Source: Candidatus Daviesbacteria bacterium (lineage in GTDB: Bacteria > Patescibacteriota > Microgenomatia > Daviesbacterales > UBA10151). Taken from it: DNA of 64,000 nucleotides. The DNA is taken from contig JAQTPP010000003.1 of assembly GCA_028712705.1 (NCBI GenBank), forward strand, positions 52-64,051, in the 5' to 3' direction. Position numbers and translations under genes: made by a program. Below, piece after piece: positions 9,153-61,793 of the stretch (positions are counted from its first letter, which is position 1; each line of letters starts with the position of its first letter). Below the pieces are notes generated by a model. It saw only the letters and a program-made list of their open reading frames with translations, ran no database searches and was not told the origin of the DNA.

Positions 9153-9366
9153 ATATAATTCAAAGTTCAAAATTATATTGATAGAATAAGCTAAAGTAGG
9201 GAAGTGAGAGAGTTTACACTGAGCGATCCGGCGCAGCCGGAGAGTCGAAGTGTGAAAATTTTCTTTATTTTCGTGAAAAGAATAATTGATGTGGTTTGAT
9301 ATAGTCGACAGGTACGGAAGGCAAAAACTATGGGGTATGTTTTTCCAAAAATTAGGATCGATTCTC

Positions 9367-28705: not shown

Positions 28706-30769
<2,064 letters not shown>

Positions 30770-46505: not shown

Positions 46506-47202
46506 GCAGGTCCGGGCGGATTTTTTTGGTTTTTTCCAAAGATTTTTGTTCTCTCCATTTGGCTATCTCGGCATGGTTTCCGGATAATAATACTTTTGGT
46601 ACTTTTGATTCTTCAAATTCTTCCGGTCTGGTATATTGGGGGTGTTCAAGTAATCCTTCTGAAAAAGACTCATTTACAGTAGCTTCGGGTTTTTCTAGGA
46701 CGCCGGGAATCAGTCTGGTGATGGAATCTACAATGACCATGGCCGGGATTTCTCCTCCTGTCAAAACATAATCCCCTATGGAAATTTCTTCATCCACATA
46801 TTTGTCAATAAACCGCTGATCCACTCCTTCGTAATGTCCGCATATGACGATCAGATGATTTATTTTGGAAAATTCCAGAGCTTTTTTCTGTTTATAAGGG
46901 TATCCTGATGCCGACATTAAAATAATTTTTAATCCCTCGACTTCGCTCGGGACAAGTTTTAAATTTTTAATTCTTAAAAGAATAGACTTTAATGCACGAG
47001 TTAAAACGTCAGGTTTCAATACCATGCCTGCCCCACCGCTATAAGGTCGGTCGTCAACTACTTTGTGTCTTCCCCCGCCAAAGTCACGAAGATTAACCAG
47101 CTCAAATTCAACCAAACCTTTTTTTTGTGCCCGTTTAAGGATTGATGAATCTAAAATCGGATTAAAGACTTCCGGAAATAAAGTGACAATGGAGATTTTC
47201 AT
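46489..47202 (-). CDS. trmD: tRNA (guanine37-N1)-methyltransferase
   Basis: [11 protein letters not shown]...DDRPYSGGAGMVLKP and GHYEGVDQR motifs. Confidence 0.9.
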   Translation of the reverse strand: MKISIVTLFPEVFNPILDSSILKRAQKKGLVEFELVNLRDFGGGRHKVVDDRPYSGGAGMVLKPDVLTRALKSILLRIKNLKLVPSEVEGLKIILMSASGYPYKQKKALEFSKINHLIVICGHYEGVDQRFIDKYVDEEISIGDYVLTGGEIPAMVIVDSITRLIPGVLEKPEATVNESFSEGLLEHPQYTRPEEFEESKVPKVLLSGNHAEIAKWREQKSLEKTKKIRPDLLTQTD

Positions 47203-47483
47203 TGCGAGGAAGCCGATTTATCGGCTGACGTGGCAATCTCTTGGGGGGATACAGGTTCGGTTAATTGCAAATTTACTCTGATATTCTCAGCGATGGCTCT
47301 AACAGTTAAAAGCTTGCGGATCGCTCTGATTGTTTGGCCGTTCTTTCCGATAATCAGACCCATGTCTGTCGGGTCAACTGTCAGGTTTAGATTGATATTT
47401 TCGTTGTCTTTTTGTTCCTCAACCGAAACAGCTTCCGGCTTGGTAACCAAATTGGTTACGATAAAATTAAGCAGGTCTTTCAT
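47199..47483 (-). CDS. KH-domain RNA-binding protein (YlqC/UPF0109 family)
   Basis: [17 protein letters not shown] is the KH GXXG motif. Sits between rpsP and trmD. Confidence 0.75.
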
Positions 47484-48036
47484 TTTTCTCGCTTTCTGGG
47501 GTGGGCTCGATGTTAGCCTGCTCGCCAGTCAAACTCGCCTCACTCGCTCCGCTCGTGACCGGCTCGGATGGCGTCACGCTCGTCATAGCTTGAGCCTTTT
47601 GGCCATCCTCACCTGGCTCAGACAAAGACTGGTCTGCGCTGGCTTTAACATCTTCGCTCTTCTCGCCTACCTCTGGCTCGGGTTTTGTTGTCTCTTTGGT
47701 TACCTCTTCTTTAGGAGTTTCTTCTACTTGTTTTTCTGTTTTTACCTGTTCACTGTCACCTGTTGCCTGTTTACTTTCTTTTTTTGGTTTTCTTGGTGGC
47801 CTTTGAGGGGCTTTACCGGTGATTCTAAGGAAACCGGTGGACATCTGTGCCCCTTGTTTAACCCAGTGATCAATCCTGTCTTGCTTAAGCTTAATATCTT
47901 TAGGTTCTGTTAAAGGGTTGTATGTTCCAAGCAATTCTATGCAGGCACCTGTCCTTTTGGCACGTTCATCAACAACTACCACCCGGTAAAATGGCTTTTT
48001 CTTGGCACCGATTCTCATTAAGCGAATTTTTAGCAT
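47467..48036 (-). CDS. rpsP: 30S ribosomal protein S16 with long charged C-terminal extension
   Basis: [23 protein letters not shown] core, about 85 aa. Followed by a roughly 100-aa K/E/P/T-rich extension encoded by a GC-rich tract. Confidence 0.9.
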
Positions 48037-49645: not shown

Positions 49646-51775
49646 TTAATCCGGCATCACTTCTGATGCAATATCCTGTAATTTTGCATTGAGGAGCGGG
49701 TATTTGTCAAGGGTGGGGTCTTTTGATAATAAATCTTGCGTTTCCTGTCTGGTTTTTTCCAGCAAGGTAATGTTGGAAAAAGTAGCTATTTTAAACTCAA
49801 ATCTGCCTGATTGCGCAGTACCGAAAATTTCCCCGCTTCCCCGGATTTTAAGATCCAAGTTCGCCAGTTTTAACCCATCAAAAGTAGTTTCCAAATATTT
49901 AAGTCTTCTTGCATCATTGCTTGACACATCCGATGTGTAAAGTAGACAGTAAGACTCTTTTGTTCCTCTGCCTACCCTGCCCCGGAGTTGATGCAGCTGA
50001 GCCAGGCCAAAACGTTCTGCCCCTTCAATGACGATGATGGTGGCATTTGGATTATCCATGCCGACTTCAACTACAGAGGTGGAAACCAGAATATCGGTTT
50101 TGCAGGATCGGAAATCTTTGGTGATAGTGTCCTTGTCAGCTCCTTTCATCCTGCCGTGAAGCAGGTCTAATTTAAGATGGGGAAAAACTTTTTGAAGTTT
50201 TTCAAACTCCACCTTGGCGGTCTTTACGGTTGTTAGAGTTTCCGAAGGTTCAATTAAAGGTGTAATAATATACACCTGGTCACCTTCGGCAACTTTTTTG
50301 GCAATGAATTTGTAGGAGTCCAGTCTCTTCTTTTCAGGTACAACATATGTTTTAACCTGTTGCCTTCCGACGGGTAATTCATCAATAATTGACATATCCA
50401 GATCCCCGTATAAAGTTAGTGCCACGGTTCTGGGTATCGGAGTGGCTGTCATGGTAAGGAAATGCGGGATTTTGGCTCTTTTTCGAAGCAGAGTTCGCTG
50501 CTGTACACCAAAACGCTGTTGTTCGTCTATGACAACCAGTCCGATATTGTCAGTGGGTAGTTTCCGGGAAAGAAGGGCATGAGTTCCAACAATCACCTGC
50601 GCGGGTCCTGCCGGCTCTCCGCCATTGGCGGACCGCCGTGCATCCTCGATCGCTTCGCTCCTGCGGCTACGCGTCGGGGACGCTCGCTTCTGCCCGTCAC
50701 CCGCGCTTCTTGATAGCTGCTTCTTGCTGCCTGTATAAATTCCTACTGTGATTCCGTATGGTTCCAGAAGATTTTTTAAGGTTTCAAAATGCTGGAATGC
50801 CAAAATTTCCGTGGGTGCCATGAATAATGTTTTTAGATTATTTAAGTGGACAAGATATGCAGCAGCGGCAGCTACTACTGTTTTTCCGGAGCCTACCTCT
50901 CCTTGTATTAATCTGTTCATCGGTTGATCCTTTTTAAAATCAACAGTAATTTCCTGCAGGACTTTTTGTTGGGCCCGGGTCAGTTTAAATGGGAGTTTTT
51001 TTATAAATTGGTTTAATTTGTTAGAGTTTATTTTAAATGGTTTGACAAGCGGAATTTTGCTCCATTCCAGACGGGCTTTTTGAGTTGCTAAAGACACAAA
51101 AAAAAGTTCATCAAAACCGAGTCTGTTTCTAGCTTTTTCCGCCTGCTCCCAATTTTCCGGGAAATGAATTTGTTGCAAGGCGGAAGCGAGTGGCAACATT
51201 TCGCCTCGAATCGGGTTTGGTAACGGGTCCCTTATTTCATCTAAGACTTGGGGTAGCAGCTGGGCAATTTTGGTGCGCAGCCACTTAGAGCTTACCCCAT
51301 AGGTTTCAGGATAAACAGGGACCAGTCTGCCTGTATGGAGAGTTGGTAGTTGGTAGTTGGTAGTTGGTAGATTGGAAATCTTTTCCCATCTTGGAGCAAT
51401 TATAGAAAGCTTATTTTTATACTTGCTGATTTTGCCTGAAACCTGTAACCTGTCGCCTGTTTGAATCTGTTTGGTCAGCCAGGAAGAGTTAAACCAGGTT
51501 AACTCTATTGGTGAGGTGCCATCATTAAAGACAGCTTTGGTAATAATTTTTCTGGATCTGGTATAAATATTTTGGATTGTCCAGATTTCTCCCTGCAAAG
51601 TTACAGACTCTCCTATTTTGGCTTGCAGAGCTGAGGTAGTATTGGAAAAATCATCATACCTAAAGGGGAAATGATAAATTAAATCTTCAAGAGTGAAAAG
51701 ATTAAGTCTCTCCAGTCTTTTGGCATACGTATAACCAATACCCGAGAGTTGCAATAAAGGCGTATTAAAATTCAT
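49646..51775 (-). CDS. recG: ATP-dependent DNA helicase RecG
   Basis: Wedge domain, GEVGSGKT Walker A, DEQQRFGV (DEQH variant). Contains a GC-rich in-frame island encoding SRSAGDGQKRASPTRSRRSEAIEDARRSANGGEPAGPA. Confidence 0.9.
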   Translation of the reverse strand: MNFNTPLLQLSGIGYTYAKRLERLNLFTLEDLIYHFPFRYDDFSNTTSALQAKIGESVTLQGEIWTIQNIYTRSRKIITKAVFNDGTSPIELTWFNSSWLTKQIQTGDRLQVSGKISKYKNKLSIIAPRWEKISNLPTTNYQLPTLHTGRLVPVYPETYGVSSKWLRTKIAQLLPQVLDEIRDPLPNPIRGEMLPLASALQQIHFPENWEQAEKARNRLGFDELFFVSLATQKARLEWSKIPLVKPFKINSNKLNQFIKKLPFKLTRAQQKVLQEITVDFKKDQPMNRLIQGEVGSGKTVVAAAAAYLVHLNNLKTLFMAPTEILAFQHFETLKNLLEPYGITVGIYTGSKKQLSRSAGDGQKRASPTRSRRSEAIEDARRSANGGEPAGPAQVIVGTHALLSRKLPTDNIGLVVIDEQQRFGVQQRTLLRKRAKIPHFLTMTATPIPRTVALTLYGDLDMSIIDELPVGRQQVKTYVVPEKKRLDSYKFIAKKVAEGDQVYIITPLIEPSETLTTVKTAKVEFEKLQKVFPHLKLDLLHGRMKGADKDTITKDFRSCKTDILVSTSVVEVGMDNPNATIIVIEGAERFGLAQLHQLRGRVGRGTKESYCLLYTSDVSSNDARRLKYLETTFDGLKLANLDLKIRGSGEIFGTAQSGRFEFKIATFSNITLLEKTRQETQDLLSKDPTLDKYPLLNAKLQDIASEVMPD
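50596..50712. repeat. GC-rich in-frame island within recG (contains GGCGGACC and CGCTTCGCTC motifs shared with the atpG/atpD elements)
   Basis: About 117 bp of locally very high GC inside an AT-rich gene, at the position of a short variable linker in RecG. Confidence 0.45.

Positions 51776-59361: not shown

Positions 59362-61793
<2,432 letters not shown>

Follow-up and report, generated by a model that had tools for sequence, protein, structure and literature searches.

The recG gene of a member of Candidatus Daviesbacteria harbors a short, GC-rich tract that is read here as one copy of a dispersed repeat. The tract lies in a 64,000-nucleotide stretch of contig JAQTPP010000003.1 (the window, by which the whole of that stretch is meant), and it is, with a probability that we put at roughly 0.75, a non-autonomous, hairpin-forming selfish repeat of Candidatus Daviesbacteria, of the kind represented elsewhere by the Rickettsia palindromic elements (RPEs) and the intragenic MITEs (miniature transposable elements with inverted repeats). 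The evidence comes from RecG alignments in which the site is mostly empty, from copies of the same DNA at other loci, and from a predicted hairpin whose paired positions have changed together.

The GC-rich tract of recG

GC content averages 0.40 over the whole 64 kb (80-nucleotide windows, standard deviation 0.068) and reaches its maximum of 0.7375 in the recG tract, the runner-up being a second island at 869-990 (0.725); in a 100-nucleotide window, positions 50600-50699 have a GC content of 0.72. The sliding-window plot bears out the GC-rich island that an earlier note, made from the sequence alone, had described in recG. The extent given there, 50596-50712, does contain the island but is slightly wide, the element proper occupying 50599-50706. 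The host gene encodes a protein that is an exact match to the database entry P0001, 'ATP-dependent DNA helicase RecG [Candidatus Daviesbacteria bacterium]', with the precomputed domains RecG_wedge, DEAD, Helicase_C and RecG_dom3_C. The helicase domains are all intact despite the insert, and the protein matches T. maritima RecG (1GM5) at E = 2e-138. The principal features, in window positions, are these:

49646..51775, minus strand: recG, the host gene, 709 amino acids (open reading frame (ORF) list and exact database match P0001)
50599..50706, minus strand: inserted element, 108 nucleotides, in frame (GC peak, empty site, matches to the family profile and covariance model (CM))
50699..50706, minus strand: left terminal inverted repeat GCGCGGGT, coding orientation (inverted-repeat pair, 8 nucleotides)
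50599..50606, minus strand: right terminal inverted repeat ACCCGCGC, coding orientation (inverted-repeat pair, 8 nucleotides)
50633..50678, minus strand: 46-nucleotide core CCCGACGCGTAGCCGCAGGAGCGAAGCGATCGAGGATGCACGGCGG, the same in the window and in the sister genome L001, near-invariant in the family (8-copy alignment)
50652..50658, minus strand: GCGAAGC, predicted hairpin apex, a GAA loop closed by one G-C and one C-G pair (pattern match)
50666..50672, minus strand: GCGTAGC, a second GNA-type motif, inside the invariant core (pattern match, invariant columns)
50618..50632, minus strand: side-hairpin tip TCCGCCAATGGCGGA, the GGCGGACC palindrome, in the window copy only (alignments with L001 and the family; inverted repeat)

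The edges of the element form a perfect 8-bp inverted repeat, 100% complementary in a repeat search. Translated in silico, the element corresponds to RecG residues ~357-392, SAGDGQKRASPTRSRRSEAIEDARRSANGGEPAGPA, and a peptide stretch of the insert region reads SRRSEAIEDARR. The linker peptide quoted in the earlier note, ...TGSKKQLSRSAGDGQKRASPTRSRRSEAIEDARRSANGGEPAGPAQVIVGTHALL, is exact in the RecG frame, and the three nucleotide motifs singled out there (GGCGGACC, CATCCTCGATCGCTTCGCTC and CCGTCACCCGCGC) are all present on the plus strand.

When the 120 RecG proteins that are closest (63-100% identity) are aligned, the tract falls between two strands, one that ends in GIYTGS and one that reads VIVGTHALL. 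This segment is 10-13 residues long in 72 of the 120 proteins, for example TGSKKDAKDAEVIVGTHALL, and 46 residues long in the window RecG; at the same position T. maritima RecG has ~20 residues, GATTPSEKEKIKSGLRNGQIDVVIGTHAL, and is a less apt standard than the close relatives. Two of the 120 proteins have the insert and 118 lack it: the linker occurs in no distant RecG and is shared solely with P0002, the 93%-identical protein of the sister genome. The empty site can be read in the DNA of L093 and in that of the relative L094, where it is AAA TCC GCG CAA GTT, and the filled site of the window is AGC GCG [GGT...CCC GCG] CAG GTG. By comparison with L094 the net insertion is 102-108 nucleotides, with ends that are ambiguous by ~3 nucleotides. 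The window and sister copies differ by +3 and +9 nucleotides in the window, with the frame kept. As judged from these alignments, the tract is an insertion and not native RecG sequence. An AlphaFold2 (AF2) model built with 60 homologues has a mean predicted local distance difference test score (pLDDT) of 79, falling below 50 at residues 357-389, with confident strands on either side (344-347 and 394-397), which suggests a disordered surface loop where the insert would be compatible with the fold.

The loop is variable well beyond this pair of genomes. Loops of at least 20 amino acids occur in 38 of the 120 homologues and fall into ~19 sequence classes by shared 4-mers, with further inserts at the same RecG site in many Levybacteria and other Microgenomates; many of the inserts are palindromic at the DNA level. 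Two of them, GC-rich inserts in L081 and L083 (proteins P0043 and P0030), were considered as relatives of the window element and rejected, being different palindromes unrelated to it.

Related copies and the predicted hairpin

Within the 64 kb the tract has no relative, only matches of 10-12 nucleotides being returned by blastn-short. The family emerged when a 23-mer from the core, GAGCGAAGCGATCGAGGATGCAC (50638-50660), was scanned against public metagenome contigs, which gave six further loci (L084-L089) on contigs of ~40% GC with flanks unrelated to each other. Searches of ~795 kb of collected DNA with an nhmmer profile and a CM then recovered 10 copies at 7 loci, two of them 1 kb apart in the 5-kb locus L097; the window copy is matched by the profile at 50603-50702 (E = 4.8e-15) and by the CM at 50610-50704 (60 bits). 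Three scans of viral contigs yielded only a chance 18-mer match (L090, a contig of 67% GC), and Rfam 15 gave no match at E <= 1 in L084, L087 or L089 and only chance-level matches in window positions 50400-50900. The copies are placed as follows:

recG, window and L001: in frame, sense (profile search, alignment)
murB, L097: in frame, sense, with the frame that recG uses, TGDGERGAPARSRRSETIEDAR... (profile search, alignment)
gene for a conserved 299-amino-acid protein, L087 and L097: antisense, in frame (with additional protein-level evidence from P0143, P0144, P0147 and P0150)
prfA/prmC junction, L084 1149-1244 and L085 7974-8069: supplies the prfA stop codon
L089: N-terminal region of an ORF resembling a penicillin-binding protein
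L086 and L088: two intergenic sites

At other loci, too, presence of the element is variable. The murB insert segment is absent from L096, and in the murB gene of L095 another insert takes up that loop; most homologues of the 299-amino-acid protein are without the recG-type segment. At the prfA/prmC junction of L084 and L085 the TGA stop codon of prfA lies in the element, within GGGGTGAC. The same element also holds the GTG that opens the prmC reading frame, so that PrmC may owe an N-terminal extension to it. Proteins adjoining the copies of L085 and L088 have exact matches in genomes of Candidatus Daviesbacteria that come from Rifle groundwater, and the hosts of the family are Candidatus Daviesbacteria.

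The family consensus, CGAGGGGTGACAGCGAGGAGGGGATCCCGGCGCGTAGCCGGAGGAGCGAAGCGATCGAGGATGCACGACGGGAAACCGAGCTGGCAGGACCCCGAG, is ~96 nucleotides long, a multiple of three, with a GC content of ~70%, and it is open (without a stop codon) in five of the six reading frames. A length divisible by three and the near lack of stops would let the element survive inside genes. Indels in the genic copies are all multiples of three, namely the 3 and 9 nucleotides that separate window and L001 and 12 nucleotides of one arm that have been lost in L087, which argues that the tract is read through and not spliced out. An intein or intron reading was set aside on the same ground, there being no obvious intein or intron features (as seen outside any formal test). 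The window copy has 74-89% identity to members at other loci, and these are 88-97% identical among themselves. The recG tract is a good copy within a family separate from the element in atpG and atpD, of which the earlier note had taken it to be a diverged copy. What stands of that repeat-superfamily reading is that the tract is a repeat-derived, hairpin-forming, in-frame insert and not a native linker.

RNAalifold predicts a single long imperfect hairpin for the family, comprised of a terminal stem GGGGT/ACCCC, internal stems and the apex GCGAAGC, where the consensus structure has pairs 48-54 and 49-53. The apex motif itself is mildly enriched, with nine matches against 4.5 expected and 2 of 100 shuffles reaching nine. 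When pairs are counted over the 10 copies, on a CM alignment fitted to this structure, 97.5% of the pair cells form standard pairs, as opposed to 27-38% with slid partners, and 11 of the 29 pairs have changed on both sides, as opposed to 1-3 when slid; none of 500 shuffles reaches this. Individual copies show the compensation directly. TCCCG/CGGGA has become TCCTG/CAGGA in L089, CAGC/GCTG has become CGGC/GCCG in L001, and a copy of L097 has a perfect 9-bp stem, CCCGACGAG/CTCGTCGGG, in place of a consensus stem with two mismatches. Both termini of the window copy and of the L001 copy were altered in step, from the 5-bp GGGGT/ACCCC of the family to the 8-bp GCGCGGGT/ACCCGCGC.

Folded as single-stranded DNA, the region is more stable than its shuffles (z = -2.7 for the 131 nucleotides of 50590-50720; z = -3.0 for the 108-nucleotide element). 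The strands are not equivalent: the sense strand folds at -17.5 kcal/mol and the other at -11.1, and invariant G-U pairs (columns 36-65 and 45-57) become A-C mismatches on the opposite strand. The tetranucleotides that flank the copies are CGAG/CGAG in six cases, GCGC/GCGC in the window and L001, and CGAC/GGAG in murB; GCGC is its own reverse complement. A target-site duplication had been considered from the GCGC and CGAG flanks and was dropped as unproven after the murB pair was seen. The tetranucleotides are probably the ends of the element.

Origin and spread of the element

If the tract is a selfish repeat, its history can be outlined. A copy would have entered recG in the common ancestor of this genome and its sister, at the short surface loop of the first RecA-like domain that joins GIYTGS to VIVGTHALL. 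The insert would be transcribed and translated with recG as a disordered, basic loop of ~35 residues rich in Arg, Ser, Ala and Gly, and it is probably neutral for RecG. Two frame-preserving patch replacements (+3 and +9 nucleotides) may have followed, one of which would have set a hairpin of the type found in the atpG and atpD elements on the side stem. The conserved hairpin, the strand asymmetry and the want of a convincing target-site duplication suggest that what is recognized is a folded single strand, and a trans-acting enzyme of that specificity could move the element, as in systems formed by repetitive extragenic palindromic sequences (REPs) and REP-associated tyrosine transposases (RAYTs), or those of IS200/IS605 type. 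The element would be kept only where it falls in permissive surface loops. The recurrence of insertion at the same hot spots could be accounted for by such a selective filter, by a preference of hairpin elements for existing hairpins, or by replacement of one element by another, which is demonstrable.

Several observations weigh against this account. No transposase or autonomous partner was found, in work that included no systematic search for one; the called genes of loci L091-L097 hold no related autonomous insertion sequence (IS), and no RAYT or TnpA gene turned up, no search having been aimed at RAYTs. The family copies show no clear target-site duplication. The orthologous copies of L084 and L085 have an identity of 95.8%, against 55-75% for the genes that flank them, and copies from different loci are 88-97% alike across metagenomes. 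Such uniformity is unlike neutral decay and speaks for constraint, for concerted evolution or for a spread that is very recent. The sample itself is biased to conserved copies by its discovery through an exact 23-mer; identity outside the 23-mer is 94-95%, so that this ascertainment explains only part of the likeness. The alignment behind the pair counts likewise leans towards the structure to which it was fitted; the pairing contrast is large even allowing for this.

The known systems closest in behavior are the RPEs. In the account of Ogata et al. (2000, Science 290:347), as relayed in PMC10969869, these are elements of ~150 bp in several families that reside in frame in housekeeping genes, in loops compatible with the protein fold. 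The Daviesbacteria elements are likewise short palindromes dispersed in a small genome, in frame in unrelated housekeeping genes, with several families coexisting, and they are predicted to be read through as extra peptide in fold-compatible loops. They differ in their host (Patescibacteria, or Candidate Phyla Radiation (CPR)), in a unit of ~96 nucleotides instead of ~150 bp, in being strongly GC-rich within an AT-rich genome, in how closely copies from different species resemble each other, and in the recolonization of the same loops by different families, with replacement. The kinship would be one of behavior only; sequence homology across phyla is not to be expected.

With the intragenic MITEs of bacteria, such as the Coxiella QMITEs (PMC5896051) and the ERIC and Correia elements (PMC10969869), the recG-type family has in common its non-autonomous nature, terminal inverted repeats, hairpin potential and in-frame fusions with host ORFs. 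Unlike MITEs it has no clear target-site duplication and no identified parent IS, and only very short repeats mark its termini, of 5 bp in the family and of 8 bp in the window copy.

By definition, REPs lie outside genes; their short hairpin has a 5' GTAG next to it. With REPs, REPINs and the palindrome-associated elements of the RAYT and IS200/IS605 systems, the family would share a structure kept by compensation, constant flanking tetranucleotides and, as proposed here, recognition of a folded single strand. A GTAG does occur in the invariant core of the recG-type family, not beside a REP-like hairpin, and the recG-type element differs from REPs in being a single 96-nucleotide hairpin with most copies intragenic. 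The atp-type elements of the window, made of two inverted modules, are the ones that recall a REPIN doublet.

Full-text literature searches found no description of such CPR elements, returning only general MITE and RPE papers and primer coincidences; such an absence is not proof. We regard the family as an undescribed one of a known, RPE/MITE-like kind, for which repeated colonization and replacement at the same loops is an extra feature. Bacteria of the CPR, or Patescibacteria, have tiny genomes that are usually called streamlined. Even so, this 64-kb window has repeat-derived, in-frame inserts in recG, atpG, atpD, gyrB and a gene of rluA type. Odd insertions and length variation in CPR proteins may be explicable in part by elements of this sort, which can mislead alignments, phylogenies and structure prediction, and the hot-spot loops provide natural experiments on the tolerance of a loop for 30-40 extra residues.

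The alternative that survives best, tentative as it is, keeps something of the earlier note: the recG tract would be a diverged member of one superfamily with the atpG/atpD element, by common ancestry or through the same mobilizing machinery. The two atp-type elements lie in frame in atpG (59924-60030) and atpD (60463-60535) and share 40 nucleotides at 95% identity. The atp-type module is GTCATTGCGAG, a variable GC hairpin and (C/G)GAAGCAATCTC; 25 modules were gathered from the window and the fetched loci. The inserts in atpG and atpD are built from modules of GTCATTGCGAG, a GGTCCGCC hairpin and GGCAATCTC, and Pfam coverage suggests that they add ~25-35 residues to the ATP synthase subunits (ATP-synt_ab_N spans residues 13-103 for a 69-position profile; the ATP-synt gamma profile has 285 positions, to be set against 307 residues). 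Modules from the window and from L005, L028, L056, L078 and L086 have a constant base, GTCATTGC...GCAATC, and almost every copy has a different perfect small hairpin at its tip (GTCCGCC/GGCGGAC, CCCGAT/ATCGGG, GCCAGT/ACTGGC and others).

Much of the case for a superfamily comes from short likenesses. The GGCGGACC palindrome, in the form CGGTCCGCCAA(T)GGCGGA, matches atpG at 17 of 18 nucleotides (z = 6.2 against shuffles), which upholds the likeness that the earlier note had seen; the tip is private to the window copy. The second echo proposed there, GTCATCCTGAGCG, shrinks to the 8-mer GAGCGAAG common to both tracts; its CATCCT part is on the strand opposite to that 8-mer, so that the tracts are not collinear. 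The left ends agree by eye at 9 of 12 positions (GTGACAGCGAGG and GTCATTGCGAGG), or, when extended, at 11 of 14 (GTGACAGCGAGGAG and GTCATTGCGAGGAG), for which a rough hand estimate that allows for choices gives p ~0.01. Both elements are long hairpins with an apex of GCGAAGC type, and a profile of the atp modules scores real recG-family sequences slightly above shuffles (p = 0.006-0.014, at only ~1 bit). The two types also keep the same company. They occur in the same genomes (L086 has five or more atp-type modules), reside in frame, have a GCGAAGC-like or GC-rich hairpin tip, and use the same hot-spot loops of RecG and the 299-amino-acid protein; the recG loop of L091 holds a clean two-module atp-type element, GTCATTGCGAG...CTCGCAATGAC. 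At the 299-amino-acid protein site of L095 and L096 an atp-type element directly abuts a retained 16-nucleotide right end of a recG-type element, GCAGGACCCCGAGCGT, with an orthologous junction, and the arrangement shows that the atp-type element replaced the recG-type one.

Against common descent stand the profile searches, a check that the earlier note itself proposed, which are not significant in either direction. The hidden Markov model (HMM) of the recG family finds its own 10 copies only in the ~795 kb and no atp element at E <= 10 with filters off; the HMM of 25 atp modules reaches ~1 bit on the recG family (E ~400); and the recG-family CM, with filters off, has the recG copy as its sole family match in the window, without an atp element. 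Even when up to 2 mismatches are tolerated, the recG element lacks the termini that define the atp type, GTCATTGCGAG...CTCGCAATGAC, and its core is different as well. Neither the orthologous L001 copy nor any of eight other copies has the GGTCCGCC/GGCGGACC hairpin: at the place of the 50618-50632 tip the sister has GATATC, the consensus GAAACC, and other copies GATACC or GAAGCC. This absence speaks for secondary acquisition and not for inherited likeness, and xCCGCC-loop-GGCGGx is a form of hairpin that the variable tips of atp-type modules typically take. Most simply read, the window copy acquired its atp-style tip in a secondary step, perhaps through template switching, or through conversion, at the CACGG/CGG that is shared. 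Any two GC-rich hairpins, moreover, are expected to share short GC-rich words.

A selfish repeat must also be weighed against a functional one. The element might be a structured RNA or single-stranded DNA hairpin under selection, for instance one that stabilizes mRNA or takes part in its processing, or one at which a protein binds or priming starts. The near-invariance of the 46-nucleotide core, the pairing kept by compensatory changes, the invariant G-U pairs and better folding of the sense strand, and the 95.8% identity of the L084 and L085 copies between flanks of 55-75% all speak for such a function, and at most loci, by a hand tally of orientations, that strand runs in the same sense as the neighboring gene. 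We consider this rather unlikely. There is no Rfam match; copies sit in ORFs in both orientations, in mid-gene, at a junction and between genes, with no common regulatory logic visible; L087 has lost 12 nucleotides of an arm, and in L095 and L096 a copy is almost wholly replaced. Recent spread, gene conversion and ascertainment by the exact 23-mer would also lead one to expect the similarity.

A bolder proposal, to which we give little credence at present, is that the hairpin elements are cassettes of a structure-directed exchange system, in which several families are swapped as folded single strands into the same permissive loops. The families concerned would be the recG type, which is GC-rich, the atp type and a variety of AT-rich palindromes, with RecG, MurB, the 299-amino-acid protein, AtpD, AtpG and GyrB among the housekeeping proteins that host them. 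Selection or concerted evolution would keep the sequences far more uniform than the host genes. The uniformity between species (96% for the element, ~70% for the flanks), the compensated hairpin and the family replacement do go beyond simple neutral decay. If the proposal is true, CPR bacteria would have a class of mobile or functional DNA, not described before, by which surface loops of essential proteins are continually remodeled.

A linker native to RecG, or an adaptive DNA-binding loop rich in Arg, with a GC content that follows from its amino-acid composition, is a very improbable identity for the tract. The peptide is basic and lies within the helicase domain, and its frame and length are maintained in both sister genomes; against this, 118 of the 120 closest RecG proteins do without it, the same DNA occurs in murB, on the opposite strand of another gene and in intergenic DNA, and AF2 confidence is below 50 across the segment. 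A local GC content of ~73% in a genome of 40% could suggest foreign GC-rich DNA, acquired through recombination or horizontal transfer, or a chimera made in assembly. Either is hardly credible given the presence of the tract, with differences, at the same site in two independent assemblies and in eight other places, all in contigs of ~40% GC, the sole match in a high-GC contig (L090, 67% GC) being the chance 18-mer.

Other inserts and variable loops

A number of further inserts were observed in the window. The second GC island, at 869-990 (0.725), lies in frame in the ORF 531-1346 of an RluA-type pseudouridine synthase, in which PF00849 spans residues 13-204 for a 152-position profile. It is palindromic (CCCGCCTGCC...GGCGGGCAGGG, apex GAGCGTAGCGAT) and has a weak match to the recG-family CM (917-961, E = 3.7), and it may be a distant cousin of the recG-type family. 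The gyrB ORF (28706-30739, minus strand) has at ~28960-29000 an in-frame hairpin insert, GTCATTCTGGGGAGCGAAGCGACTCCAGAA, between the Toprim and C-terminal domains, which is a member of a GTCAT...GAGCGAAGCGA repeat group. Ribosomal protein S16 (ORF 47467-48036, minus strand) has 189 amino acids, of which the S16 domain occupies residues 8-66 only. The DNA of its C-terminal tail is GC-rich (~60-66%, 47486-47624), contains GAGCGGAGCGAGTGAGGCGAG and is the same in the sister L001 (at ~7184); the tail may be repeat-derived.

Two isolated pieces resemble the atp type. A solitary module, TTCATTGCGAGGAAGCCGATTTATCGGCTGACGTGGCAATCTC, is located at 47198-47241, at the 5' end of trmD, where it overlaps the start codon, and an intergenic fragment at 9205-9252, GTTTACACTGAGCGA...TCGAAGTG, matches 17 nucleotides of the atpG element.

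Variable loops were also seen in the proteins of the fetched loci. The 299-amino-acid protein (L087, L095-L097, P0143-P0261) has a second hot-spot loop, between FKFLPNW and LAKWFQLKIM, and in dozens of homologues its loop inserts are of recG type, of atp type (SLRGVKRRSNL...RSLAMT), AT-rich palindromes, or longer. MurB of L095, L096 and L097 has two variable loops with different repeat-derived peptides, for example, in one, the recG-type element, TTSKVGFLVPSEGKSDFPEVEGDSF or nothing; in the other, a 21-residue peptide, KPSVIASPKGVAIS or SERSESKDLSRMRVT.

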